Virus record (IMG/VR): IMGVR_UViG_3300042934_000306 | Source: a virus | Taxonomy: Duplodnaviria > Heunggongvirae > Uroviricota > Caudoviricetes | DNA length: 17,540 nt | Direction: 5' to 3' (one strand) | Shown here: one piece after another, positions 1-16,455 of the stretch | How positions within the stretch are numbered: the stretch's first letter is position 1 | How the letters are laid out: each line of letters begins with the position of its first letter | Program-made: the position numbers and the translations under genes | Notes under the pieces: model-generated | Told to the model about the DNA's origin: nothing | Database searches by the model: none | The model's input: only the letters and a program-made list of their open reading frames with translations

Positions 1-612
1 ATGCCGGTGCTTAAACCGTTTATGGACATGGTTAAAAAGTACGGTACGCCATACATCGGCGGCGCGTTCTGTACTGACAGGCTAAAACTCACCCCTTTCA
101 CGAAATATTGCGATGACCATTTTGGGCGAGGGAATTACATCACATGGCTGGGTATTCGTGCGGACGAACCCCGTAGGCTGAAACCGAAACCGGGCGTCCG
201 GTATCTTGCCGAGCTGTCAGATTTTGATAAGTCGGATGTTATCCGGTGGTGGCGAAAACAACCTTTTGATTTGCAAATCCCGGAGCACCTCGGGAACTGT
301 GTTTTTTGCATCAAAAAGTCAACGCAAAAGCTGGGGCTTGCATGTAAAGACGAACCTGGTCTGATGCGAATTTTTAATGAGCTGGTTACAGGCAAACACG
401 TCAGGGATGGTCATCGCAGAACAGGTAAAGACGTTATGTACCGTGGTCACCTGACGCTTGACGGGATTGCCAGAATGTATGCCGACAGCGACTACAGAAA
501 TTTGTATCAGGCGATGGTGCAGGCCAAGCGGTTTGATACTGGTTCGTGTTCCGAATCATGTGAAATCTGGGGTGACCAATTGGAGTTGAGATTCGAAGAG
601 GTAGTGGCATGA
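1..612 (+). CDS. PAPS reductase-like (phosphoadenosine phosphosulfate reductase family) protein, 5'-truncated by window edge
   Basis: ORF open from base 1; GIRADEP segment resembles the G-L-R-R-E-Q-S motif of CysH-type PAPS reductases, plus CxxC; stop TGA 610..612 overlaps next start (ATGA). Family call from memory. Confidence 0.55.
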   Translation: MPVLKPFMDMVKKYGTPYIGGAFCTDRLKLTPFTKYCDDHFGRGNYITWLGIRADEPRRLKPKPGVRYLAELSDFDKSDVIRWWRKQPFDLQIPEHLGNCVFCIKKSTQKLGLACKDEPGLMRIFNELVTGKHVRDGHRRTGKDVMYRGHLTLDGIARMYADSDYRNLYQAMVQAKRFDTGSCSESCEIWGDQLELRFEEVVA

Positions 613-1088
613 CAAACAAAATTGACTATCAAAAGCTTCGTGAAATTGCTGAAAAAACAAAAATTGCTGGTGAAGCGCCTGTAATGCCTTTCGATCAGCG
701 AATTAATGCGCTTAACGATTTTATGAAGCACTTTTCGCCAGATATCGCGTTGGCATTATTGGATGAAGTTAAACGCCTGGAAGACACAAATATCGATGCT
801 ATGTGCCGAATTGCAGAGGTGGAGGCGCGGGAAATAAAACCAGCCAAAGGCGAAGTTCTTGTCGTTGTCTCTGGTTTTACTGGTTGCGGGAAAAGCGCCA
901 TTGCCGGGGAAATAGAAATTGCGATGAAAGCTATTGGCGTGCCGGTTCAATGGACTAATGGCGATGCAGAAAAGCATATGACCGGCGCTGACTGGCTGAC
1001 AGCGATTGAGATGTACAAACCAACTGTGCGCATCGTGGAAGTTAATGTGCCACGCGCCGCTGGCATTCGCATCAAAGAAGGTGAGTAA
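609..1088 (+). CDS. hypothetical phage protein (159 aa), possibly Ead/Ea22-like
   Basis: ATG at 609 overlaps upstream stop; uninterrupted 159-codon ORF; no motif recognised with certainty. Confidence 0.5.
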   Translation: MTNKIDYQKLREIAEKTKIAGEAPVMPFDQRINALNDFMKHFSPDIALALLDEVKRLEDTNIDAMCRIAEVEAREIKPAKGEVLVVVSGFTGCGKSAIAGEIEIAMKAIGVPVQWTNGDAEKHMTGADWLTAIEMYKPTVRIVEVNVPRAAGIRIKEGE

Positions 1089-1264
1089 TGCGTGTGGCAT
1101 GTATCGGCTTGTTACCGTACCCGACTCGTTTTTGGGCTTCTGCGCTAATTGCAAAGCCACATGTCCTGATGGCTGACAACATCATCCCGGCACCAAAGCG
1201 CCGCCATACCGGTATTGCAGCGGCACGACGAGCAGCAAAGAGACGCAGGAGAGCAAAGCGATGA
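1088..1264 (+). CDS. small basic protein (58 aa), Arg/Lys-rich C-terminus
   Basis: ATG at 1088 overlaps upstream TAA (TAATG); translated by hand as MRVACIGLLPYPTRFW...RRAAKRRRRAKR; stop TGA overlaps next ATG at 1261. Not in the supplied track (under 60 aa). Confidence 0.25.
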   Translation: MRVACIGLLPYPTRFWASALIAKPHVLMADNIIPAPKRRHTGIAAARRAAKRRRRAKR

Positions 1265-1437
1265 AAAACCGTAAGGCAAAACGACTTTTTTTACAGCGAC
1301 CTGTGCGTGTGGTGGAGCTGGTTATTAGCAACCATAAGATAGCGGTACTCCATCCATTTGGTCAGGTGGCTTTTGCCGCAAAGCGTAAGCCTACTGCGTC
1401 ACAGAACAGGCGGAAGAAAGGGTACGCAGTAAGATGA
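1261..1437 (+). CDS. small basic protein (58 aa), MKNRKAK N-terminus
   Basis: Hand-translated MKNRKAKRLFLQRPVRVVELVISNHKIAVLHPFGQVAFAAKRKPTASQNRRKKGYAVR; ATGA overlap at both ends; paralogous ends with the 1434..1622 ORF. Confidence 0.3.
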   Translation: MKNRKAKRLFLQRPVRVVELVISNHKIAVLHPFGQVAFAAKRKPTASQNRRKKGYAVR

Positions 1438-1622
1438 AAAACCGTAAAGCAAAGATTCTGTTAGTTCGTAGAAACGCTCCTGGCGTCTGGCAGTGGGTGA
1501 GACTCAGCAACCGACGGATGGGGTTGATGAAATATTACGGGATGATGGATTGTGGTTTTTGCAAAAAGCCCAGCGCGGCGCAAAACCGCTGGAGAAACCA
1601 TTTGCGCACTAAAGGAGAGTGA
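1434..1622 (+). CDS. small basic protein (62 aa), MKNRKAK N-terminus
   Basis: Track ORF MKNRKAKILLVRR...AQNRWRNHLRTKGE; its 3' end carries AAGGAGAG, the SD for the next gene. Confidence 0.35.
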   Translation: MKNRKAKILLVRRNAPGVWQWVRLSNRRMGLMKYYGMMDCGFCKKPSAAQNRWRNHLRTKGE

Positions 1623-1623
1623 T

Positions 1624-1833
1624 ATGGCTATTGCCGCAAGTTACACCATGCATCTCTATTGTGACTGCCGCCAGTGTACGGAAGGTGTATATCCAGTGCC
1701 AGACTTCGGTGAGTATATCGGTACGTCATGGTCTGGTTGTGCAAAAGAGGCCCGTAAAGACGGGTGGCGAATAAGTAAAGACAAAACACGTGCTTTTGCG
1801 CCCGGGCATAAAGTTTTGAGGATTAACAAATGA
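1624..1833 (+). CDS. small Cys-rich protein (69 aa), possible zinc-binding
   Basis: ATG 1624 preceded by AAGGAGAG at 1611..1618; MAIAASYTMHLYCDCRQCTEG...; stop overlaps DUF551 start (ATGA). Confidence 0.5.
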   Translation: MAIAASYTMHLYCDCRQCTEGVYPVPDFGEYIGTSWSGCAKEARKDGWRISKDKTRAFAPGHKVLRINK

Positions 1834-2435
1834 CCACTATTACCAGAGAACAGGCACAGAAAATTATTGAAGCAGCCGATGAGGTTATTAGTGCGCTGGC
1901 CGGAACTAATGAGGATGTTCACCCTGGTAGCGATAACATGCTACGTCTGTGGGATGACCTGAATGACCGTCACGCGCCCCCTGAAGTTGTGCGTGAGTTG
2001 GCACGAATTGTGCTGGCATCGCTGGAAGCAGAGCCTGTAAGCCAAACTTACAACTTGCCAGAATTAATCGAAGGCATGGAAGTTTCCATTGATGTAAGCA
2101 CTTGTGATGCTGATTTAGGTAATCGCTATTTCGGCACCGTCACCGAGGCGTTAGAACTTGATACAGCCAAGAATGGTTACATCCTCCTGGTTCAGGACGC
2201 AGAGCCAAACTTCGATGTAAATGGCAACTCTCCGGTAACTCCGGATGGTTGGATAAGCTGTAGTGAGCGAATGCCCCCTCAAGATGATTGGATTTTAATT
2301 TATTCAAAGCACGGCGAGTATATGGCAGGACAGGTACAAGGGGAATACGTGGAGTTGAGCGACGGCACTTTATCGTGGTTAGGGAACGCCTTGTTCTGGA
2401 TGCCGCTACCAGAACCGCCGCAGGAGGCGAAATGA
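1830..2435 (+). CDS. DUF551-like phage protein
   Basis: C-terminal W-rich segment (DGWISCSERMPPQDDWILIY...) typical of DUF551 proteins in lambdoid early regions; assignment from memory. Confidence 0.65.
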   Translation: MTTITREQAQKIIEAADEVISALAGTNEDVHPGSDNMLRLWDDLNDRHAPPEVVRELARIVLASLEAEPVSQTYNLPELIEGMEVSIDVSTCDADLGNRYFGTVTEALELDTAKNGYILLVQDAEPNFDVNGNSPVTPDGWISCSERMPPQDDWILIYSKHGEYMAGQVQGEYVELSDGTLSWLGNALFWMPLPEPPQEAK

Positions 2436-2692
2436 TGGATGTAAAAGAGAAGGTTTTGCAGGTGATGCGTTCCCGGGCTGCCCTGCAAGATAAAGCTCTC
2501 GGCGGGGAATATCCATTCAGGATGGCAACCTGGAATCTGCGGTTGGCAATGGAGAAGGCATTTCCTGATGAAGAATGGCGTTCGGCAGATTTGCGCAAAA
2601 TTCTTATGGAGCTGGCTAAAGACGGAACAGTATCCAAAGATACCCATGCCAGCCGGATTGGTCAGGCGGTATGGAGACTGGAGGTGAGGTAA
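2432..2692 (+). CDS. hypothetical protein (about 86 aa)
   Basis: ATGATG at 2432/2435 after GGAGG at 2423..2427, overlapping the upstream TGA; the track ORF 2288..2692 start is in-frame but overlaps the upstream gene. Confidence 0.5.
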   Translation: MMDVKEKVLQVMRSRAALQDKALGGEYPFRMATWNLRLAMEKAFPDEEWRSADLRKILMELAKDGTVSKDTHASRIGQAVWRLEVR

Positions 2693-2973
2693 TGGCTAAC
2701 CTGCAACTTGCCGTTAAAGGTGAATACTTCGATGCCATGATTCGCGGGGAGAAAACGGAAGAGTATCGCCTGTGTAATGACTACTGGAATAAGCGCCTCG
2801 TTAACCGTAAGTATTACCGCCTGATTATCACAAAGGGATATCCGAAGCGCAAAGACTTCAGTCGCAGAATTGACGTCCCGTATAACGGATATGAAATAAA
2901 AACAATCACACATCCACACTTCGGTGATAAACCGGTAAAGGTGTTCGCGATAAAAGTGAAGATTAATAGCTAA
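2692..2973 (+). CDS. ASCH-domain-like protein (93 aa)
   Basis: ATG 2692 after GGAGGTGAGG, TAATG overlap with upstream stop; N-terminus MANLQLAVKGEYFDAMIRGEKTEEYR resembles the ASCH/PUA-like signature. Confidence 0.45.
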   Translation: MANLQLAVKGEYFDAMIRGEKTEEYRLCNDYWNKRLVNRKYYRLIITKGYPKRKDFSRRIDVPYNGYEIKTITHPHFGDKPVKVFAIKVKINS

Positions 2974-2996
2974 ATTTCAATTAACACGGAGTAATT

Positions 2997-3290
2997 ATGT
3001 GGCGCGGTAATAATCATGGCGGAAGTCAGATGATACTTACCGAATATACGTTCGACCACAAAACCAATAAATCACGTTCAGTATATTTGCTTCGGCACAA
3101 TAGCCGCGTAAGAAATACCGTTCTGGAGCAAAATCTGACCGTTGAAATGGATAATTTGGGAAACTTCAAGCCAACAATATCGCTTGATGATTTTCCGTGT
3201 GGTTTAAGCGAAAGAGAAGCAATGCTGAAATTAGCAGAATGGTTACAAAGATTGAGCATTGCTATTGAAGATAACTGGATTCAACCATAA
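2997..3290 (+). CDS. hypothetical protein (97 aa)
   Basis: ORF with GGAG five nt upstream of ATG 2997. Confidence 0.45.
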   Translation: MWRGNNHGGSQMILTEYTFDHKTNKSRSVYLLRHNSRVRNTVLEQNLTVEMDNLGNFKPTISLDDFPCGLSEREAMLKLAEWLQRLSIAIEDNWIQP

Positions 3291-3314
3291 TGAAAAACAG
3301 AAAGAAAGATTGCT

Positions 3315-3524
3315 ATGGCAACATTTAGTAAATTCGCAGTAATTATTATTTTATTAATTCCCCTCACTGTTACAGCAGGGGAACAGCAACATTGCACAAA
3401 AGAGAATGAACACCCTTTCATCGTTATTCAATGCGATGACGGAACGGTGACTGTGGTTAATGTAAGAAATGACCGTGTAGCTGTTTGCCGTAAAGGCGAA
3501 CCATGCAAGGAAATAAAACTATGA
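3315..3524 (+). CDS. small secreted or periplasmic protein (69 aa), signal-peptide-like N-terminus, 4 Cys
   Basis: MATFSKFAVIIILLIPLTVTAGEQQ... hydrophobic leader followed by a Cys-containing mature part; stop overlaps next start (ATGA). Confidence 0.5.
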   Translation: MATFSKFAVIIILLIPLTVTAGEQQHCTKENEHPFIVIQCDDGTVTVVNVRNDRVAVCRKGEPCKEIKL

Positions 3525-4270
3525 CAAGAATCACTAAAGAGCGTATTTCAGATATTATTTCCCGTATCGAAATGTATGGTCACGGTGCTGGATACACAGC
3601 AGATGAAGTATTGGAGCTTGCCAAAATAGCTTTAGCGCCTTGCAAGGATGGTAAAGCTATGACACTGATTGACTTGTTAGTGAAGGAATTATCTAAGGGG
3701 CGTGGATGGCCTGATGGAAAAGATTTTTGCCATCTATCCATTACGATGCCAGGTAGTAGTCGCGCTACGGTTCTTTTTGGTACGCGCCATAAAAATTACC
3801 AATCATCAAAGAATTATTCCATTGATGGCATTATTTGCGATATCAGTGACCTTGATCGCAGTGCGTTTACATCGGTTGTCACTCGTGAACAGTATGAAGC
3901 AGCTCGCATAGCGTCTCAGAAAGTTAAGTCTGAAAGTAAGGCTTACAAGTTAGATTTTGAGCAATGGCTGGAACAGCAACGCGGGAAAATCGATGTGGAC
4001 TGCGGTTGTGTGTCTGCGGAAACATTCATGCACTGGTTGCGGGTAGCTTATGAGGCTGGGAACCATCCGGATTTTCCGGATAGTTCCCAACAAGCGCCCA
4101 GGAAAAGCGTAAAAACCACTCTGGAAAGAGGCTATCTTGAGGCCGCATTAAAGATTAAGCCGGGCCATACACTAGGCGTCATTGATGCCATGTTGGTTCA
4201 TGAAATGGCGAAGGCTTTATTGCCGCTGGTGGCTGATAAACATGAGGCGGACCATGCCAACGAAAGCTGA
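3521..4270 (+). CDS. hypothetical phage protein (249 aa)
   Basis: ATG 3521 with AGGA upstream and ATGA coupling to the preceding ORF; the alternative in-frame ATG at 3503 would overlap the previous gene by 22 nt. Confidence 0.6.
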   Translation: MTRITKERISDIISRIEMYGHGAGYTADEVLELAKIALAPCKDGKAMTLIDLLVKELSKGRGWPDGKDFCHLSITMPGSSRATVLFGTRHKNYQSSKNYSIDGIICDISDLDRSAFTSVVTREQYEAARIASQKVKSESKAYKLDFEQWLEQQRGKIDVDCGCVSAETFMHWLRVAYEAGNHPDFPDSSQQAPRKSVKTTLERGYLEAALKIKPGHTLGVIDAMLVHEMAKALLPLVADKHEADHANES

Positions 4271-4538
4271 GTTACAGGCGCGCATAGAGATTCTTGAAAA
4301 AGAGAATGCGAGTCTAAAAGGAATGCTGGCGCGGGCGGAAAGGGAATTATCAGGCAAATTATTGCCAGAAGAGCTGCCACCAGCAGATATACCTGATCGA
4401 GTGTCCTGGTGGATGAAGTATTTCCGTGCACCGTGGGAGGCGTTTTGGTGCTACGACCATCGCAGATGGTGTGATGAGCTTGATAGCAGTTTCCCCTATT
4501 TTGCGGAAGGGAACTCTTGCCCTGAATGTAGGAGTTAA
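4254..4538 (+). CDS. hypothetical coiled-coil protein (94 aa)
   Basis: ATG 4254 after GAGG; the track ORF from 4182 overlaps the upstream gene; heptad-like AELQARIEILEKENASLKGMLARAEREL. Confidence 0.45.
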   Translation: MPTKAELQARIEILEKENASLKGMLARAERELSGKLLPEELPPADIPDRVSWWMKYFRAPWEAFWCYDHRRWCDELDSSFPYFAEGNSCPECRS

Positions 4539-4586
4539 TGATGACCGGCGATAACGCGTTTGCACCAAAGGTGTCTCTTTAATGTA

Positions 4587-4606
4587 TACTGTATAAATGA
4601 ACAGTA
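4587..4606 (+). promoter_or_regulatory. LexA (SOS) box TACTGTATAAATGAACAGTA overlapping a TATAAA -10-like hexamer, 20 bp upstream of humD
   Basis: Exact CTGT-N8-ACAG with the flanking TA..TA of the enterobacterial consensus, read directly from the sequence. Confidence 0.8.
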
Positions 4607-4625
4607 TTATTGAGGTGAAAACGCT

Positions 4626-5015
4626 ATGGGCTTCCCTTCTCCTGCGGCGGACTATGTTGAAAGCAGAATTTCTCTTGATCAGCAACTAATCAGGCATCCA
4701 TCAGCGACATACTTCATGCGGGCGGCAGACAGCCATCACCGTGAGGGAATATTGCAGGGTGCTTTGCTGGTGGTTGATTCTTCGCTTACTCCAGTTGATG
4801 GTTCGCTGCTTGTGTGCGCTATGGAGGGTGAATATCGCATAAAGAGATACCGAAAGTATCCGCGCCAGCACCTGGAGGATTTAAGCACCGGGAAGAAAGA
4901 GGCGTTACCAGTAGATGACGATGGTTACACGGGTAGTAATGCTGTTTTTGGTGTGATCACTCATGTCATCAATGATGCCCGAAGTGGGGAGTTTGATGAT
5001 TGTCCGGTCATTTAA
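4626..5015 (+). CDS. humD: UmuD-prime-like protein (HumD-type), lacks the cleavable N-terminal tail
   Basis: Starts MGFPSPAADYVESRISLDQQLIRHPSATYF, aligning to UmuD from Gly25 (the RecA-mediated cleavage product); GAGGTGA SD; sits immediately upstream of phd-doc as in P1. Confidence 0.8.
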   Translation: MGFPSPAADYVESRISLDQQLIRHPSATYFMRAADSHHREGILQGALLVVDSSLTPVDGSLLVCAMEGEYRIKRYRKYPRQHLEDLSTGKKEALPVDDDGYTGSNAVFGVITHVINDARSGEFDDCPVI

Positions 5016-5056
5016 GCTGCAAAGTGCTGGTGCTTTATGCCTGTGAAGTTTATGAT

Positions 5057-5078
5057 TGTGTACACATAACGAGTACAC
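5057..5078 (+). promoter_or_regulatory. putative Phd/Doc operator: TGTGTACACA palindrome plus GAGTACAC half-repeat just upstream of phd
   Basis: Perfect 10-bp palindrome 5057..5066 and a related 8-mer 5071..5078 ending 10 nt before the phd ATG; matches what I recall of the P1 phd operator. Confidence 0.45.
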
Positions 5079-5087
5079 GAGGTGTTT

Positions 5088-5309
5088 ATGCAGTCCATTA
5101 ACTTCCGTACCGCGCGCGGCAACCTTTCTGAATTGCTCAACAATGTTGAAGCCGGGGAAGAGGTTGAAATCACCCGCAGAGGCCGTGAACCAGCAGTAAT
5201 TGTCAGCAAGGCTACTTTCGAAGCCTACAAAAAGGCGGCGCTGGATGCTGAATTTGCATCCCTGTTTGACACCCTGGACTCCACCAACAAGGAACTGGTT
5301 AACCGATAA
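5088..5309 (+). CDS. phd: Phd antitoxin (prevent-host-death)
   Basis: [73 protein letters not shown] is near-identical to P1 Phd as I remember it; 73 aa; stop overlaps doc ATG. Confidence 0.9.
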
Positions 5310-5689
5310 TGAGGCATATATCACCGGAAGAACTTATTGCGCTTCATGATGCGAATATAAGCCGCTACGGCGGCCTGCCGGGAATGTCAGATCCGGGTAG
5401 GGCAGAGGCCATTATCGGGAGAGTTCAGGCCAGAGTTGCCTACGAAGAGATCACCGACCTTTTCGAAGTCTCCGCAACCTACCTGGTGGCTACTGCGAGA
5501 GGGCATATATTCAATGATGCCAATAAGCGTACCGCGCTAAACAGTGCGCTGCTATTTCTACGCCGTAACGGTATACAGGTATATGATTCTCCCGTGCTGG
5601 TGGAACTTGCGGTGGGGGCTGCAACTGGTGAAATCCCCGTATCTTCAGTAGCGGAAAAACTACGTGAACTATATGGTTCCAATATTTGA
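5309..5689 (+). CDS. doc: Doc toxin (death-on-curing, Fic-fold kinase)
   Basis: [40 protein letters not shown]... matches P1 Doc; includes the [11 protein letters not shown] Fic-like motif; 126 aa. Confidence 0.9.
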
Positions 5690-7582: not shown

Positions 7583-8233
7583 TCACTCCACTACAAACCA
7601 GTCACAAGCCAGTAAATCATCAACATACGGCAACCAAACGCTGTCCATATTTTGTGCATCTTTCAATACGAAATGGTCACCATAAGGAACCTGAATGTCG
7701 TGTAAATTGACGCTCCCAGCGAGAACTAACCAGCAGAATTGCTTTTCGCCTTTCCACTCGCGTCGAGCTACATTTTTTCCTTCTTTCAGCCACATTAGCG
7801 CATCAGAAAAGTCGGCTGCTTCAAGGTCGATTTCCTCTTGCTGGGTAGTGGTACCACCAGCAGAAATAGTTACACTCCCGGTAATATTAATCATCACGCC
7901 GTTGTCATCCGTAATGATGACCGTGGTTCCATTTTCGGAGGCGTCGTTAACCAGGCCATAGCATTCCTCAAATGGTTTCTCCGGGGCATAGAACAGATAA
8001 CCGTTTTCATAAACGATCAGATACCCGCCAGTTTTTGGTCGGTGTTTTTGTAAAAACATTGCGTCAACACAAACTGTTGCCCCTTTTGGTTCAACGAGTT
8101 CAATGCAGCCCCAAAGTGGGGCATCAGTTACTCCGAAAATAACAACATTTTTGATTTTCGATGCACTAACGTTTTTGTGAGCTTTGTATTTGGGAAGGAA
8201 CTTAAAAAGCTCTTTCGTTGCCATGTAATTCAT
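7583..8233 (-). CDS. two-domain protein (216 aa): unknown N-terminal domain fused to a DUF2829/Tad2-like C-terminal domain
   Basis: AGGAAAGG SD before ATG 8233; C-terminal FSDALMWLKEGKNVARREW ... LPYVDDLLACDWFVVE fits the signature I associate with DUF2829; not verified by HMM. Confidence 0.5.
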   Translation of the reverse strand: MNYMATKELFKFLPKYKAHKNVSASKIKNVVIFGVTDAPLWGCIELVEPKGATVCVDAMFLQKHRPKTGGYLIVYENGYLFYAPEKPFEECYGLVNDASENGTTVIITDDNGVMINITGSVTISAGGTTTQQEEIDLEAADFSDALMWLKEGKNVARREWKGEKQFCWLVLAGSVNLHDIQVPYGDHFVLKDAQNMDSVWLPYVDDLLACDWFVVE

Positions 8234-9629: not shown

Positions 9630-10658
9630 TTATAAATCCATCAGGCGGCTATTAGCCCCCACAGACACGCCGCCACGGCGAAGATACCGCATAAGTGTTT
9701 CCGGTTTCTTCCAGGTTCCTTCCTGCATGATCTCCACCATAGACACCTGCTTTTCAGCCATATCAATAGCGGCCCCGACGCGTGCACTATGCCCGGTCCA
9801 CGTCCGGTATCTTCCTTTGTTTGGCGTAGCATCTCTTTTATTCAGCAACACCCAGGCGTCGCTGAATATTTTCTCCATTGCAGGTGCAGTAAGGGGCGTT
9901 GTCGTGAGCCTGGCCTTATTGCTACGGTGTATCGGCGGGAACAGCACTGCGTCAGGATGTTCGCGAAGCCCTGAAACATCCAGCCAGTCATTCAGCACAG
10001 CGGTAGTGCGACGGGAAAGCACCTTATCAAGCCCGGCGGCGGTCGTTATTGTCTTCGTGTGTGAAATATGTAGCGTGACAGTGTCACCTGTTTGGTCCAG
10101 ATCTCCTACACGAATACGCGATATTTCCGACATACGCATCAGCGTATTGTATGCAACAAAGAGAAAAGCCCGGTTGCGCAGGTCCACCAGCCGTTCTGAC
10201 CTGGACAGCAGGACGTCGAGCAGTTTCAGATCGTCCCACCGCAGCGGTATAGCCTGGCCTGTTCGTTCGCCTTTTTCAGTTGCCGCTTCGCGCCGGATGC
10301 GCCGCATAGCCAGAGAAACACTTTTATCATCCGAAAGTGGTGGAAGGCCACAATGCGAAAGCAGCATGTTCAGCATGGCGTAGTGCTTATCAATGGTGGT
10401 CGAAGCCAGATCAGCATCATGCAGCTGAAGAAAATACTCGCGGGCCATCTCTGGTGAGATCGGGAACCAGGCGAGCTGGCGAGCGTGACACCATCTCGCC
10501 CAAGAGTGAAACACTAACCGGAGATCGCGCAAAGTATTCGGCGCGTAAGCCCCCTGGTCATTCATGAACCGCATAAAGTTTTCTGCGGCCTCCTGGTACT
10601 CTTTGCCAATGTTGCGCAGAAAACCACCGGAACTGCCAGAGATAATTAATTCACTCAT
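9630..10658 (-). CDS. dre: Cre-family tyrosine site-specific recombinase (Dre-like)
   Basis: 342 aa; aligns to P1 Cre across its length at roughly 45-50 percent identity by eye (AYNTLMRMSEISRIRVGDL, HSARVGAA, TWTGHSARVGAAIDMA blocks); adjacent rox-like site. Confidence 0.8.
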   Translation of the reverse strand: MSELIISGSSGGFLRNIGKEYQEAAENFMRFMNDQGAYAPNTLRDLRLVFHSWARWCHARQLAWFPISPEMAREYFLQLHDADLASTTIDKHYAMLNMLLSHCGLPPLSDDKSVSLAMRRIRREAATEKGERTGQAIPLRWDDLKLLDVLLSRSERLVDLRNRAFLFVAYNTLMRMSEISRIRVGDLDQTGDTVTLHISHTKTITTAAGLDKVLSRRTTAVLNDWLDVSGLREHPDAVLFPPIHRSNKARLTTTPLTAPAMEKIFSDAWVLLNKRDATPNKGRYRTWTGHSARVGAAIDMAEKQVSMVEIMQEGTWKKPETLMRYLRRGGVSVGANSRLMDL

Positions 10659-10810
10659 GAAACTATTTGACCTCTATATACAGATGACGCTACGCGAAAA
10701 ATATAAAAATGACAGGGTAGCTATAAGTTAATTTTCAAAATACAAGCCTTTGATTCGAGGCACGTATTTTCAGTGATGTCAACACTGTTCATCTACACAT
10801 GATTATAGCC

Positions 10811-10842
10811 TAACTTTAAATAATGCCAATTATTTAAAGTTA
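10811..10842. other. rox-type recombination site: TAACTTTAAATAAT-GCCA-ATTATTTAAAGTTA (perfect 14-bp inverted repeats, 4-bp asymmetric spacer)
   Basis: Read directly; lies 153 bp upstream of the recombinase start; identical to the rox sequence as I recall it from phage D6. Confidence 0.8.
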
Positions 10843-11052: not shown

Positions 11053-12090
11053 ATGAGTAAGAAGTCGATCGAGAAAGAGTACAAACGGTTCCTGCAAACC
11101 GCTGAACGGTGGAAAGAGCTGGTGGTCGCAAACTCTGTTTTCCATGATACCAGTTATGCTGGCGAGGAATTCCGCCATGTTGCATTAACGCATGACCAAA
11201 ACATATTAGAAGAAGCTGAAAAATGTCTTGCTGAATGGAAAGCCTTCGTTGACATGTGTCGCGATGCCGACGGCAAAGCGTCGAACATTGTTGAGTCTGT
11301 ATATTCTCCGATCCCATTCATCATTGAGGACACCAATCAAAGCACGCATGTTGTTGTGCAAAGCGCTACAACAACACGTACATTTACACGTGAACAATTG
11401 CTCAAAAAATACGACAAAATCATAAAGAAAAGCCTGAAAAATAGGGTTTTTTCTCAAATCGTAGGTGCTCTTGAAGAAGAACAGCGCTTCTTTGAAGCTG
11501 AGCCTGAAGGCGAGATCTACCGGGCGCGTAAAGAGGCATATACAGATGTTGTGCTGACAACAAACATCGAAGGCAGCAATGCCCTTTCTCGCTTTAGAGT
11601 TGGCGCACATGGCGCATTGGTTTTCGCAAGGCTACCGAAGACAACGATCCCCGTTGTCAATAATGTTGGTGAACGCCGGAGCATTACAATTTATTCTGGC
11701 GTCGAATCGGTACCTTGCAGCCTTCTCGGCGATTTTAACTTATATCGTGTTCGTGACCTGGAAAAACACCAGCCAAGCTACGTTGCGAAGTCGTACATCT
11801 TAAGGAACATCGATATTCGCAATGAAAGCCTTAAGCAGAAATCCGCTAAGATGCTGGAGGATGCCGATCCGGCTATTCGCCATATCATTGAGCGTAAGAT
11901 ACGTACATCACGTGAAGCAATGGCAAGGCTGGATAAAATGGATCTGGAATTGTTAGACGTAATGATGGCCTCTGGAGACGACCTGACCGGCATTAAACTG
12001 AATGAAGCTCGTAAAAAATACGGCAAAGCAATCGAAGAACGTTACGGATACACATTCCCCCAAACGCAGTACGCCGCGAAGCTCTGGTAA
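11053..12090 (+). CDS. hypothetical protein (345 aa) at the position P1 uses for its c1 immunity operon
   Basis: AGGA SD before ATG 11053; transcribed from the rox side towards pacB; no HTH or similarity to C1 that I can recognise. Confidence 0.6.
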   Translation: MSKKSIEKEYKRFLQTAERWKELVVANSVFHDTSYAGEEFRHVALTHDQNILEEAEKCLAEWKAFVDMCRDADGKASNIVESVYSPIPFIIEDTNQSTHVVVQSATTTRTFTREQLLKKYDKIIKKSLKNRVFSQIVGALEEEQRFFEAEPEGEIYRARKEAYTDVVLTTNIEGSNALSRFRVGAHGALVFARLPKTTIPVVNNVGERRSITIYSGVESVPCSLLGDFNLYRVRDLEKHQPSYVAKSYILRNIDIRNESLKQKSAKMLEDADPAIRHIIERKIRTSREAMARLDKMDLELLDVMMASGDDLTGIKLNEARKKYGKAIEERYGYTFPQTQYAAKLW

Positions 12091-12098
12091 TCACAACT

Positions 12099-12116
12099 GG
12101 CCCCGCATCGCGGGGC
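12099..12116. terminator. GC-rich hairpin GGCCCCGC..GCGGGGC followed by TTTATATAT, between convergent 345-aa gene and pacB
   Basis: 6-7 bp GC stem read from the sequence; U-rich tail on the plus strand. Confidence 0.4.
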
Positions 12117-12117
12117 T

Positions 12118-13626
12118 TTATATATCCAGATCTGGCATTTCGATATCCGCCAGAACCTGATCTCGGAAAGTTGCCATTTCGGCACCAATATCTTCATTAG
12201 CAGGCACATAGTCCACCAGCATAGTGAAGCAGTAGGTATCCCATCGGTCAGGCGATTTGATGTTTAGCTTTTGCCGCATGTGCTCTTTGCGCATCATCGC
12301 CATTTTCCCTTCCTCATTCAGTAAAAAGGGGATTTTTGACGCTTGCTCTGCCGTTTTAGGGTCACTGTCTATCCGCATACGCCCTGACTTTATGGCATCA
12401 CGCGCCATAATATTTGCGTAGGCACGCTGATTAACAAATCGCTCCCTGTCTTTGTTCGCAAACATGGGTTTTCCCCACCGAATACGTACCGGGTTCGCAC
12501 CACGACGCACCAACTGCGCACACGTATCAGAACCAAAACCATCGGCATCAACCGCGATTGTTATATTCGGGTATTTTTCCGGCGTACATTCGTTATATAT
12601 GAAGTCAGCAAAGGCCAATGGGTCCATAGTGCCAGGCATCTCCATTACCTTAAAGTTAACAACGCGCCGCTTATCCCTGTGACCAGATACCTTGCAGATG
12701 TTGAGGACCGACTTATCTCGCCCATTACCAACGTCAGCCGTTGCCACCCATCCCCAGTTTTTCTCCAACAACACCTTGCGGCGAGCTGCGCGATCGCATT
12801 CATCACGACCAAGCAAATAGCCGTTAATTTCTCGTGGGAACTGACCAAGCACCTTGACCATGTACTCAATAGAATCGCGCCCGCCATATTCCAGAAGCTT
12901 CTGCTTGATGAATTGTGGTGTGACGAACGGTGATTCTTCCGAGTTAAGAACAATTGCTGTCCAGATCCCTTTCGGGTTGTCTGGGGTTTTTGCTTGAGAA
13001 TGGTGCGAATCGTAGAAATAACCACTTGGCCTTGTTGGCTGGGATAGCATCAACATCCGGTTATCTTCTTCAGTAAGAGCACCGGTCATTACGCCGATCG
13101 CCTTATCAGATATACCAGATGCTTCATCCAGAATTAGAAGCAAATGTGCCGCATGTTCCCCCGCCAGCGCTTCTTCGTTGCCGAGTCGATAACCTTTGCA
13201 GAGAACTTCCCAAATCCCCTTACGGGAGCGCTCATAAAACATGGTGTCAGAGAGGACAAAATAGGTCTGCAACCACCCATGACGCTTAACTGCATTCGCC
13301 CAATACTGTTTAACGTATTTGAATACGCCTGTTTTTACCTGGCCTATCTTGTTAGCAACAATGATGACACGGGCATCGGGGAACAGGATCATAAAAATCA
13401 ACAGCAACATCGCGGTAAGGGACGACTTCCCCGTTCCGTGTCCGGACGTGACGGTCGTCCTACTCCCCGTTTCCTGCACTGACTGAATGATCTGCTGCTG
13501 CTGGTGGGAGGGGAACATCCCAAAAATATCGACAACAGCCTGGGTAAAGTTGTAGCGGTATTTGATTACCATATCGCGCCAGCGTGGATCGCTGGTGACG
13601 CATTTAATCTTGCGCCCGCCAGCCAT
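12118..13626 (-). CDS. pacB: terminase large subunit (PacB-like)
   Basis: 502 aa; Walker A SGHGTGKSS, Walker B LLLILDEASG, C-terminal Asp-rich nuclease-like region (ATADVGNGRD, AVDADGFG); GGAGGA SD; TAATG coupling to pacA. Confidence 0.85.
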   Translation of the reverse strand: MAGGRKIKCVTSDPRWRDMVIKYRYNFTQAVVDIFGMFPSHQQQQIIQSVQETGSRTTVTSGHGTGKSSLTAMLLLIFMILFPDARVIIVANKIGQVKTGVFKYVKQYWANAVKRHGWLQTYFVLSDTMFYERSRKGIWEVLCKGYRLGNEEALAGEHAAHLLLILDEASGISDKAIGVMTGALTEEDNRMLMLSQPTRPSGYFYDSHHSQAKTPDNPKGIWTAIVLNSEESPFVTPQFIKQKLLEYGGRDSIEYMVKVLGQFPREINGYLLGRDECDRAARRKVLLEKNWGWVATADVGNGRDKSVLNICKVSGHRDKRRVVNFKVMEMPGTMDPLAFADFIYNECTPEKYPNITIAVDADGFGSDTCAQLVRRGANPVRIRWGKPMFANKDRERFVNQRAYANIMARDAIKSGRMRIDSDPKTAEQASKIPFLLNEEGKMAMMRKEHMRQKLNIKSPDRWDTYCFTMLVDYVPANEDIGAEMATFRDQVLADIEMPDLDI

Positions 13627-14990
13627 TAATCATCCTCCGGCGGTTCTATCGCGATATCATCATCTCCGGCGTCATACCCTGCATCAGATGCATCATAATC
13701 ACCGTAAATTTCAGCCGTTGCCGAAGGGTCAATATCCAGCTCTTCGTCGTTGGCCTCGAATTCTCCAGCTTTACGCTCGCCATTGCGGTCGTAATCTCCG
13801 CACCCCAATTCTTCAACAATGGTTGCCACATCCGCCCGGCGCTCTGCCAGCCATTGCGGATGGTTAGCCTGAAGCGTTGCAAACTCCCTTGCCTCTTTGT
13901 CCAGCTGTTCATCATCAACATCATTGACGTCAGAAACAGGTGTTTCGAGAAGAGTGATAGCTTTCGCCGCGCGCGCCGCGAGGATAGCCGGGACGCTGAC
14001 CCCCTGGCGCTCGATGTATTCAGCAACACCGATATCATCCAGTTCCTCGCGCTCACGCATACGTATAGCGGCGGCGATAACTCTGGCAGCGCGTGCGTCA
14101 GCGCCAATGCGATATTCAATCTCTTTGCCACGCTGTTCGGCCTGTAGGCGTGCTAATTCGAGTTTTTCTCTGGCCTCAGCCTCTTTGAATGCTTGCTGGC
14201 GAGCGCTCTGACGAAGCTTTTCATCCCCCTGTCGCAGCTTTTGTTCGGACTGATATATAGCTGCCAACCTACTGATAAAATCATTCATGTAGTAGGCCGC
14301 GTCACTGATTAGACCGAGAAGGCGCTGCCCAGGGTGCATTCCTTCTGGCTCTTTATCGCCCAAGGCGTCTATTTCCGCCTGTAGACGTTCGGCCTCCTGA
14401 TCAACAATGCTTTGATACTGAAGTGCGCGCTCTTGCGCCATTTGAATTGCTAACCGCAGGTGTTCTTCTGCGCCGTTCTTCATCATATCGCGAGCCACAT
14501 TCGTAGTGGGCAATGTGGCACGCTGCACAGCACCGCCAGGGATCATTGCTGAAGATCCCTCAATTTTTGGGGCGCTTTTATCTTCTTCGGGGATCATTTT
14601 CGCCATTTTTTCGCGCAATGATCTCCTGACAGATTCTTTTATCTCATTGTTATTATTTGCATTATTTTCATGATCCGAAGTTTTCTTTCTCGGCATACTT
14701 CGGAAAGAACCTGCGCCCTGCGAATTGTCAATTTCTGTAAATTTTGTTTTTTCTGCACCCTCTTCCAGCTTTTTTGTTGCTCTTCCCGCCCGTTTTTTTT
14801 CAGGTGATTTGGTGCTTTTTTTTGTTGTCTTTACCTGCGACCGCACCTCATTTTTTTTCATATTGAGATGCTTTCTGGCTGTATTGAAGCTAAGGCCATG
14901 CTCCTCACAGTATTCCTTTACAGTGATCCCTTTTTCTTCACGCAACGCTATAAAGCGGGCGCGGTGCTCCTCCCAATTAACCAGACTCAT
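13626..14990 (-). CDS. pacA: terminase small subunit / pac-recognition protein (PacA-like)
   Basis: Immediately upstream of and coupled to pacB; N-terminal HTH-like segment (ITVKEYCEEHGLSFNTARKHL), long coiled-coil middle, acidic C-terminus; GATC cluster inside the 5' coding region as in P1 pac. Confidence 0.65.
   Translation of the reverse strand: MSLVNWEEHRARFIALREEKGITVKEYCEEHGLSFNTARKHLNMKKNEVRSQVKTTKKSTKSPEKKRAGRATKKLEEGAEKTKFTEIDNSQGAGSFRSMPRKKTSDHENNANNNNEIKESVRRSLREKMAKMIPEEDKSAPKIEGSSAMIPGGAVQRATLPTTNVARDMMKNGAEEHLRLAIQMAQERALQYQSIVDQEAERLQAEIDALGDKEPEGMHPGQRLLGLISDAAYYMNDFISRLAAIYQSEQKLRQGDEKLRQSARQQAFKEAEAREKLELARLQAEQRGKEIEYRIGADARAARVIAAAIRMREREELDDIGVAEYIERQGVSVPAILAARAAKAITLLETPVSDVNDVDDEQLDKEAREFATLQANHPQWLAERRADVATIVEELGCGDYDRNGERKAGEFEANDEELDIDPSATAEIYGDYDASDAGYDAGDDDIAIEPPEDD
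14541..14675. other. candidate pac site: five Dam (GATC) sites, mostly in TGATCC/GGATCA context, within 135 bp of the pacA 5' coding region
   Basis: GATC at 14541, 14555, 14592, 14620, 14672 flanking an AT-rich core; P1 pac is a cluster of TGATCA/G hexamers inside pacA. Confidence 0.4.
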
Positions 14991-15379
14991 AAAGCAACAC
15001 CACGCTTTTTAACGGCGGCATTCCACAGCTTATTCGCCATGTCCACCAGCTCTCGTTGCTCTTTTCGCGCCTGTTCGACTGATTTCCTGCTACAGTTTTT
15101 AACCAGTAAGCTACCGTATTCAGGCGTGCGCCCGCGCACCTTGAACTGATATCCGTTCAGACCATGTAGCCAGTATTTTCGTGGATACACACGATCATCC
15201 AGCTCACAGATTGCCCTGCTTGAACGAACAAAATGACGAATGATGTTAGTTACACTTACTCGTGAAACATGGAGATGAGGGTATTTTTCTTTGGCGAGAG
15301 TGGTAATTTCAGTGACTGTCAGATAGCAGTCAGCCCTGATCATGATATCCGCAATTTCTGCGCTGCTGATTTGTTCCAT
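14987..15379 (-). CDS. putative late-promoter activator (Lpa-like), HTH-containing (130 aa)
   Basis: Sits directly upstream of pacA with ATGA overlap, the position of lpa in P1; HTH-like LTVTEITTLAKEKYPHLHVSRVSVTNIIRHF. Name by synteny only. Confidence 0.4.
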   Translation of the reverse strand: MEQISSAEIADIMIRADCYLTVTEITTLAKEKYPHLHVSRVSVTNIIRHFVRSSRAICELDDRVYPRKYWLHGLNGYQFKVRGRTPEYGSLLVKNCSRKSVEQARKEQRELVDMANKLWNAAVKKRGVAL

Positions 15380-15487: not shown

Positions 15488-15880
15488 CTACCAGCGAGAC
15501 AAACGAACAACATGTTTCACTTTTGCGATCCACTTTCCGCGATAACTATTGATTACGGCCTGTGCCAGCTTCAAATTGGCTTCAAAATCAGCCTTACTAC
15601 CATCAGACTCCACCAGCATTCCTCCATCTATTTCTGGTAAACATAGATAATCCTGCTCAACCTGCAGCGGCATTGATGGCTCTCTGAATGGCGTTACTTG
15701 CTCTGCTTTCCAGCGAAATCTAACCCTCATCCCCCTGGTGGTCATTACTAGATAGCCTGTTATAGTGCTTTTATGGCCCACATCAGTACGCGTGGCATTG
15801 CATGACACGATCTTACAGTTAGCGATAGACCACTCCATATTGGTGGCCTGTTGAGTGCTTAATTTGGTAGTCCCGTACAT
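15488..15880 (-). CDS. hypothetical protein (130 aa)
   Basis: GGGAGG SD 7 nt before ATG 15880; ATGA overlap with the upstream gene. Confidence 0.5.
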   Translation of the reverse strand: MYGTTKLSTQQATNMEWSIANCKIVSCNATRTDVGHKSTITGYLVMTTRGMRVRFRWKAEQVTPFREPSMPLQVEQDYLCLPEIDGGMLVESDGSKADFEANLKLAQAVINSYRGKWIAKVKHVVRLSRW

Positions 15881-16455
15881 CAGAAAGCCTCCCAGTCAGT
15901 CGCGATTATATCCACACCAGTTGCAAACCAGTCTGTCTGCGCCTGTAAATCACCATTCATCATTACCAGGCGAGGCATCACCATCACATCGCACCCTTCC
16001 ACAATATCGAATGCCTCTTCCGGCAAGAATTCGAAGAGCTTTTCTTTGCTGCCAATGCTGCCACGGAACATCGATATATAGCTCCCTTTAGGCCATGATG
16101 TCCGCCGGGCATCAAGCCCTTTCATCATCCAGTAAAAAGCCGAGGAAAAAGGGATATTCTTTTTGCCAATGATTACATTATTCGCTTCTGTGTACTTCAG
16201 GAACTTAACTAACCTTACCATTGACTCGGATAACGCAACGTATGGCTCATGATTGATTGCTGACACGCTTACACCGTGCAATCCAACGCTTACCACTGTC
16301 ATATCGCCGCTCTGTGCGGTTTCGATATTGACGCCTTTGCGAACTAATGAGGCGTAAAGTTCCTCTCGCTTTTGGGTCCAGCGTTCCCGCTTCCCTATGA
16401 AGTCACTCAAAATGAGATCTTCTTCTGCATATGCGTTATCGTTCGCCATTAACAT
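15880..16455 (-). CDS. hypothetical protein (191 aa) with DUF2829/Tad2-like C-terminal signature
   Basis: GGAGA SD 5 nt before ATG 16455; C-terminal AFYWMMKGLDARRTSWPKG ... DWFATGVDIIATDWEAF parallels the C-terminus of the 216-aa protein at 7583..8233. Confidence 0.5.
   Translation of the reverse strand: MLMANDNAYAEEDLILSDFIGKRERWTQKREELYASLVRKGVNIETAQSGDMTVVSVGLHGVSVSAINHEPYVALSESMVRLVKFLKYTEANNVIIGKKNIPFSSAFYWMMKGLDARRTSWPKGSYISMFRGSIGSKEKLFEFLPEEAFDIVEGCDVMVMPRLVMMNGDLQAQTDWFATGVDIIATDWEAF

Follow-up and report, generated by a model that had tools for sequence, protein, structure and literature searches.

The stretch of DNA analysed here (17,540 nucleotides, hereafter the window) carries, between the Dre recombination site rox and the convergent gene pacB, a single open reading frame of 345 codons, as had been observed in an earlier note made from the letters of this DNA. 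The same note described the gene as unrecognised. In fact, the two records of Escherichia phage D6 (AY753669 and MF356679) annotate an identical protein (AAV84948.1 and ASR76322.1, 100% identity), labelling it 'c1, phage repressor protein; similar to the C1 repressor of phage P1' and 'prophage repressor', and the reading frame is therefore the known, already annotated c1 gene of D6-like plasmid prophages and not a new gene. Its ATG is preceded, 3 nt upstream, by AGGA, and the first residue is the same in all homologues.

The whole window finds its best match, at 99.9% identity, in a 92.6-kb Salmonella plasmid (CP123702.1), and 25 plasmid records, in which the gene is named 'phage repressor protein', cover at least 80% of it. 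Between positions 10600 and 12200 the DNA is 98.8–99% identical to that of phage D6 (AY753669, MF356679), and the neighbours dre, rox, c1, pacB, pacA and lpa are the same in both. Judged by sequence, then, the window is a phage-D6-like plasmid prophage, with no substantive difference from D6 other than that it represents such a prophage and not the type phage. The order recombinase gene, recombination site, c1 and convergent pacB-pacA-lpa is common to the window, to P1 and to two relatives, which we call L006 and L007. Thus, c1 occupies the immC position, between the recombinase site and the convergent pacB, exactly as the c1 gene of P1 does, and rox marks the left limit of its regulatory region, being context that lies outside the repressor itself. 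The coordinates of the features are collected in Table 1.

Table 1. Features of the c1 region in the window and parts of the c1 product.
Feature	Position	Strand	Remarks
Operator-like site TGTTAGAAATTTAA	9615..9628	+	just past the dre 3' end; upstream of a leftward operon
rox site, 32 bp, Dre recombination site	10811..10842		sequence; annotated in AY753669
c1-distal operator-like site TTTTAGAAAACCAA	10938..10951	-	inverted relative to the proximal site, 87 bp away
c1-proximal operator-like site TGTTAGAAAACTAA	11025..11038	+	core perfect; 15-28 bp ahead of the ATG; presumably serves c1 autoregulation
c1 gene, 345 aa plus stop	11053..12090	+	ATG start
GC-rich hairpin between convergent c1 and pacB	12099..12117	+	likely a bidirectional intrinsic terminator
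pacB	12118-13626	-	convergent with c1
lpa (late promoter activator)	14987..15379	-	Pfam BPP1_LPA, E 5e-57; 31% identical to P1 Lpa; presumably repressed by C1
Operator-like site upstream of lpa TATTAGAAAATTAA	15458..15471	+	equivalent at L006 14475
c1 product, C1 core	residues 1-~245		
c1 product, C-terminal extension	residues ~233-345		subfamily-specific, helical

The window is also a mosaic: positions 617-5646 (humD, phd/doc and others) are 95-97% identical to P1-type phages (P1, RCS47), and the immC-pac part is D6-specific, encoding proteins merely 21-56% identical to their P1 counterparts.

The annotation of c1 in D6 needed checking, because tblastn of the product against 50,697 phage records (E ≤ 1e-3) matched D6 alone, because a Pfam scan gave no match (in a copy of Pfam that does not include the model PF27008), and because the product belongs to PHROG 1678, labelled 'unknown function'. 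In a BLASTP comparison with P1 C1 (NC_005856), a single colinear alignment was obtained at 21% identity, joining residues 7-237 to residues 8-242, and a tblastn search with P1 C1 across 109 kb (the D6 genome plus the window) returned this reading frame as its sole match (E 4e-6). Alignments of the two subfamilies, D6-type (n = 9; 43-90% identity) and P1-type (n = 11), were matched by hhalign with 97% probability and an E value of 1e-10 over 230 columns (D6 7-241 against P1 8-246), and the joint alignment contains 15 invariant residues: Y10, F13, D32, G37, R41, P86, P88, I90, L140, R157, R159, V183, G187, Y214 and C222. The NCBIfam equivalog model NF041318 (phage_rep_C1) aligned with residues 7-240 over model positions 8-245 (E 8.9e-6) at 25.4 bits, far under the equivalog cutoff of 500 bits, whereas P1 C1 itself scores 607.5 bits; in sequence terms the product is a distant relative of P1 C1 and not an NF041318 equivalog, and for this reason we infer functional equivalence and do not treat it as established. 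Clusters of both subfamilies carry the precomputed label PF27008 (Phage_P7_repressor_C1), and homology across the C1 core places the product in this family. Finally, the joint profile, run with HMMER in a full scan over 1.84 billion representatives, recovered 134 clusters, which form a continuum from short proteins of ~250-285 aa (P1-like) to long ones of ~345-360 aa (D6-like). A third word-indexed search for homologues with the same profile added no further sequences.

The earlier note had left the choice between a highly divergent C1 and a replacement of the immunity function. The colinear alignment, the profile match, NF041318 and PF27008 all indicate the former: the c1 product is a highly divergent C1, a distant orthologue of P1/P7 C1, which has in common with it a homologous core of ~240 aa, yet is just 21% identical to it. 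Since the neighbouring proteins are far less diverged from P1 (PacB 56% identity, Dre 41% to Cre, Lpa 31%), C1 is the fastest-evolving gene of the conserved immC-pac block.

The partners that C1 has in the P1 immunity operon are absent here, as the earlier note had supposed. Between rox and the c1 ATG the only plus-strand reading frames have 24 and 33 aa, with no coi, imcA or imcB among them, and when P1 Coi, ImcA, ImcB and Lxc were used as tblastn queries on the complete D6 genome and on the window, nothing was found (E > 0.5). The lxc gene has likewise gone undetected in a D6-like prophage (PMC6799933). Because Coi and Lxc are not detectable, the circuit differs from that of P1, where Coi is accompanied by imcA/imcB and Lxc is present. 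At the position of lxc in P1, directly after ulx and downstream of darB, D6 has orf13 (MF356679 11549-11809, 86 aa); we considered and rejected it as a diverged Lxc, BLASTP finding no similarity to the 82-aa Lxc, and it may be either a non-homologous occupant of that position or a corepressor diverged beyond recognition.

Where P1 C1, 62 aa shorter, ends in a short basic tail, the D6-type proteins have a conserved helical extension of ~100 aa at the C terminus (roughly residues 242-345), with residues such as M296, D297, S307-G308-D309, A319 and R320 invariant. In an AF2 model of the full-length protein (pLDDT 84.9) this extension forms two long helices (233-269 and 276-307) followed by three short ones within 316-342. 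It is probably a protein-protein interaction module, and could serve in self-association, in looping between the paired sites, or in the docking of an antirepressor. The idea that it might be a fused Lxc-like corepressor was rejected, since BLASTP showed no similarity, and the short matches that might have been standalone copies of the module (clusters P0094, P0146 and P0157) have the look of frameshift products or fragments and not of proteins in their own right. A recurrent variant of the D6-type protein is represented by cluster P0004 (403 aa, 107 member sequences) and by the fragment P0094: its frame shifts after about residue 320 and continues into pacB antisense, with loss of the last conserved helices, so that it is either a frameshift allele or a repeatedly seen assembly artefact.

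The flanking DNA had been described as devoid of C1-operator-like repeats of 17 bp. This is correct for repeats of the P1 type, in that the P1 C1 operator consensus ATTGCTCTAATAAATTT (PMC8546580) has 0 matches in the window at up to 3 mismatches, but operator-like repeats of another kind do exist. Each 14-mer of the dre-c1 intergenic region was scored by how often it recurs approximately in D6, and the most conspicuous was TGTTAGAAAACTAA, which has 16 sites in that genome at up to 2 mismatches. The motif is asymmetric, with the core TGTTAGAAAAyTAA (the core stretch at the c1-upstream and lpa-upstream sites is TTAGAAAA); having been taken as the most repeated 14-mer upstream of c1 it is subject to some selection bias, but its excess is much greater than ~380 trials explain, and the c1 upstream region holds no other repeated motif with a comparable excess. 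The pattern TGTTAGAAAAYTAA is found at 4 places in the window where 0.33 would be expected, a number reached in 0 of 200 shuffles, and two of these sites form the inverted pair upstream of c1. The combination against which the earlier note had staked its claim, homology to P1 C1 with cognate operators nearby, is thus essentially what we find, with the difference that the putative operators belong to another sequence class.

For the whole D6 genome a first-order Markov model predicts 0.63 sites where 16 are present, and 14 of the 16 fall in non-coding DNA, which makes up 10.2% of the genome (binomial 1.3e-12) and for which 0.15 sites are expected. They lie upstream of c1 (two sites), lpa, ref, mat/simB, hrdC, pdcB, pmgS and one icd/antirepressor operon, at the ref 3' end ahead of the second icd/antirepressor operon, and in the divergent region between gene 23 and orf52; a PWM scan of D6 revealed an extra site upstream of repL. 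P1 C1, for its part, is reported to bind 22 dispersed asymmetric 17-bp operators and to control RepL and Lpa (PMC8546580), and C1 operators are annotated in the P1 record at c1 (Oc1a-e), lpa (Olpa), ref (Oref) and mat (Omat). Since the D6 motif is placed at genes that P1 C1 controls, it occupies the C1 regulon. Both phages therefore present, in silico for D6, dispersed asymmetric sites at early and lytic promoters, those at c1, lpa, ref, mat and repL among them, but the sequences differ (ATTGCTCTAATAAATTT in P1, TGTTAGAAAAyTAA in D6), and the P1 loci immC-lpa, ref-mat and lxc contain no D6-type site. Upstream of hrdC (D6 MF356679 64111-64150) two operator-like sites overlap in inverted orientation, ATTTGTGTTAGAAAATACATATTAATTATCTAACACAAAT, like the 'bivalent' C1 operators of P1.

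Among the individual sites, the one upstream of lpa corresponds in position to P1 Olpa, ATTGCTCTAATGTATTG, which has the same orientation and overlaps the -35 element of Plpa; the only sequence that the two have in common is a TCTAA(T) core. On the lpa sense strand the D6-type site reads TTAATTTTCTAATA and is followed by TAAT, making a TATAAT hexamer. The site beyond dre adjoins a leftward operon of orf117-like, orf116-like and dut genes and has equivalents beside the recombinase gene at L006 8420 and L007 8460. In these two relatives, whose C1 proteins are 51% (L006) and 44% (L007) identical to that of the window, the core TGTTAGAAAA recurs upstream of c1 as an inverted pair (L006 9880-/9968+, 88 bp; L007 9874-/9974+, 100 bp); it also stands beside the recombinase gene in both, and upstream of lpa clearly in L006. 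The intergenic DNA around the sites hardly aligns between the window and L006 or L007, and a core that is kept in place while its surroundings are barely alignable constitutes a phylogenetic footprint. A consensus scan of the plus strand gave no convincing sigma-70 promoter for c1, and none that clearly overlaps the c1-proximal site, while for lpa the scan yielded a weak alternative only; consequently, the overlap of promoters and operators is putative.

Taken together, these data make it very probable that the reading frame is the c1 gene for the master lytic repressor of a D6-like prophage, orthologous to P1/P7 C1 and endowed with an operator class of its own. By analogy with P1, D6-type C1 would bind asymmetric operators of ~17-18 bp, probably as one molecule per site, and these operators would be scattered at the promoters of lpa, ref, mat, repL, the two icd/antirepressor operons and c1; binding would shut off late-gene activation and lytic replication, and c1 would be autoregulated. 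Because the operators of P1, ATTGCTCTAATAAATTT, are different, one would expect heteroimmunity between the phage and P1. The core, residues ~1-245, would bind DNA without a helix-turn-helix (HTH), using a predicted fold that may resemble that of Tus, a monomeric binder of an asymmetric site.

One may also read the protein as a C1 homologue and a repressor and deny that TGTTAGAAAAyTAA is its operator, the motif serving instead as an element of promoters or as a binding site for some other regulator. The link between motif and protein is drawn from sequence, some of the sites have morphogenetic genes as neighbours (pmgS, and the divergent gene 23/orf52 region), and the site upstream of lpa adjoins TATAAT, which means that the motif could in part belong to a promoter. 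We nevertheless consider this improbable: the motif stands in both orientations relative to the downstream genes, and is therefore not a promoter element; it differs from the -22 box of the P1 late promoter at LPpac, ATGTGACTT; its sites are found at the exact set of P1 C1 genes, namely c1, lpa, ref, mat and repL; its length and asymmetry fit the P1 operator class; and no comparable repeat is available upstream of c1 to take its place. A further reading is that this C1 homologue is no longer the primary immunity repressor and could be an accessory regulator, immunity coming mainly from the two immI-like icd/antirepressor regions or from another factor. The presence of those two regions in D6, together with the lack of a detectable Lxc or Coi, does speak of a rewired circuit (PMC6799933), and the C-terminal extension could carry a new function, but c1 shows strong conservation, many residues being invariant among homologues that are 44-90% identical, its place in immC is kept as well, and the paired sites at the c1 promoter region and the site at lpa are what a master repressor would be expected to have, all of which leads us to regard an accessory role as very unlikely. 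Least credible of all, to the point that we give it practically no weight, is the idea that the immunity function has been replaced by a different protein, unrelated to C1, in the immC slot. It could appeal to the tblastn search of phage records that matched D6 alone, to the silence of the local Pfam copy, to the 62 additional residues and to the missing coi, imcA and imcB; it is refuted by the hhalign and NF041318 matches, and it would have to account for colinear similarity over the entire C1 core by four independent methods, for a PF27008 label common to both subfamilies and for a single profile under which long and short forms are continuous.

How a C1 repressor would contact DNA is the one respect in which this otherwise ordinary gene may be unusual, because of a possible Tus-like fold. 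No HTH family was found in Pfam or NCBIfam scans of the product at E ≤ 1, in agreement with the earlier note, which had seen no HTH; the protein thus lacks the recognisable domain of the lambda CI, Cro or XRE type repressors, and P1 C1 has no HTH either. A very confident AF2 model of the core (residues 1-245, from a 65-sequence alignment; pLDDT 94.3, pTM 0.84) predicts an alpha/beta protein that contains long beta hairpins but no HTH. Tus recognises its asymmetric Ter site as a monomer, by means of interdomain beta-strands, and P1 C1 is likewise a monomer reading an asymmetric operator. In a scan of 24,736 Pfam models (E ≤ 10), 2 of the 65 family members matched PF05472 (Ter, the Tus family), with a best E value of 0.012; the c1 product itself had no match to this model and does not reach its gathering score. 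When E. coli Tus was compared by phmmer with 162 family proteins, per-sequence E values of 1.8e-5 and 8.7e-5 were obtained, the alignment pairing Tus 178-249 with C1 ~105-174, around the invariant R157 and R159, and an hhalign comparison between the family profile and Tus as a single sequence hit the same region without significance (4% probability). These weak sequence echoes in one and the same region are accompanied by 8% identity between Tus (PDB 4xr0) and the c1 product and by different functions, Tus arresting replication forks whereas C1 represses transcription. A Foldseek search of the BFVD viral models was uninformative, returning nothing at E ≤ 0.001, not even a model of P1 C1, and a search of PDB sequences with the family profiles gave no meaningful match.

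That the C1 family shares a Tus-like fold is in our estimation plausible but unproven, with the scales close to balance, and it would account for the lack of a visible HTH. We hold somewhat more tentatively, and slightly on the doubtful side, the wider proposal that the whole family, P1 C1 included, is a remote structural relative of Tus, that a single molecule reads the asymmetric ~17-bp site by a Tus-like cleft and not by an HTH, and that the C-terminal module gained by the D6-type proteins assumes protein-protein functions that in P1 fall to Lxc and Coi. Our search of the literature found no paper linking C1 and Tus, and the connection may already be recorded in Pfam clan notes or in D6 papers outside that search.

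The immC slot of D6-like prophages is, then, neither empty nor hijacked, but holds a very diverged C1 allele with a putative operator class of its own. It is on such a combination that heteroimmunity is expected to rest among P1-like phage-plasmids, which are common carriers of resistance genes in Enterobacterales. With a candidate operator consensus and coordinates at hand for D6-type phages, their regulon and immunity specificity become directly testable, and C1 and its operator from D6 could provide a pair orthogonal to P1 C1. The hypothesis of a Tus-like fold, in turn, bears on how P1 C1, long studied and HTH-less, reads asymmetric operators as a monomer. A long-form C1 subfamily with a C-terminal module is now defined, and it occurs in genomes that have no detectable Coi or Lxc.

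Some other features of this region deserve mention. Lying partly inside rox and partly next to it, a near-consensus sigma-70 promoter-like site (10802-10829, minus strand; TTGGCA, 16 nt, TATAAT; 11/12 consensus matches) has its -35 element in the rox spacer and is directed at dre, an arrangement reminiscent of P1, where cre promoters are found around lox. The immC-pac block is flanked by two reading frames, 7583-8233 (minus strand; 216 aa, E 1e-16) and 15880-16455 (minus strand; 191 aa, E 1e-9), with a Tad2-like C-terminal domain (PF11195, Thoeris anti-defence 2-like), which are possible anti-Thoeris genes; in L007 such a domain is fused to a dUTPase. Finally, rox-like inverted repeats are located upstream of c1 in both relatives: the one in L006 (~9752-9783), TAACTTTAAATAATGCCAATTATTTAAAGTTA, is rox exactly, and the one in L007 (~9723-9754), TAACTTTAGATAACTCCCATTATCTAAAGTTA, is a variant that stands beside a diverged Dre-like recombinase, the two possibly making up a new heterospecific recombinase/site pair.
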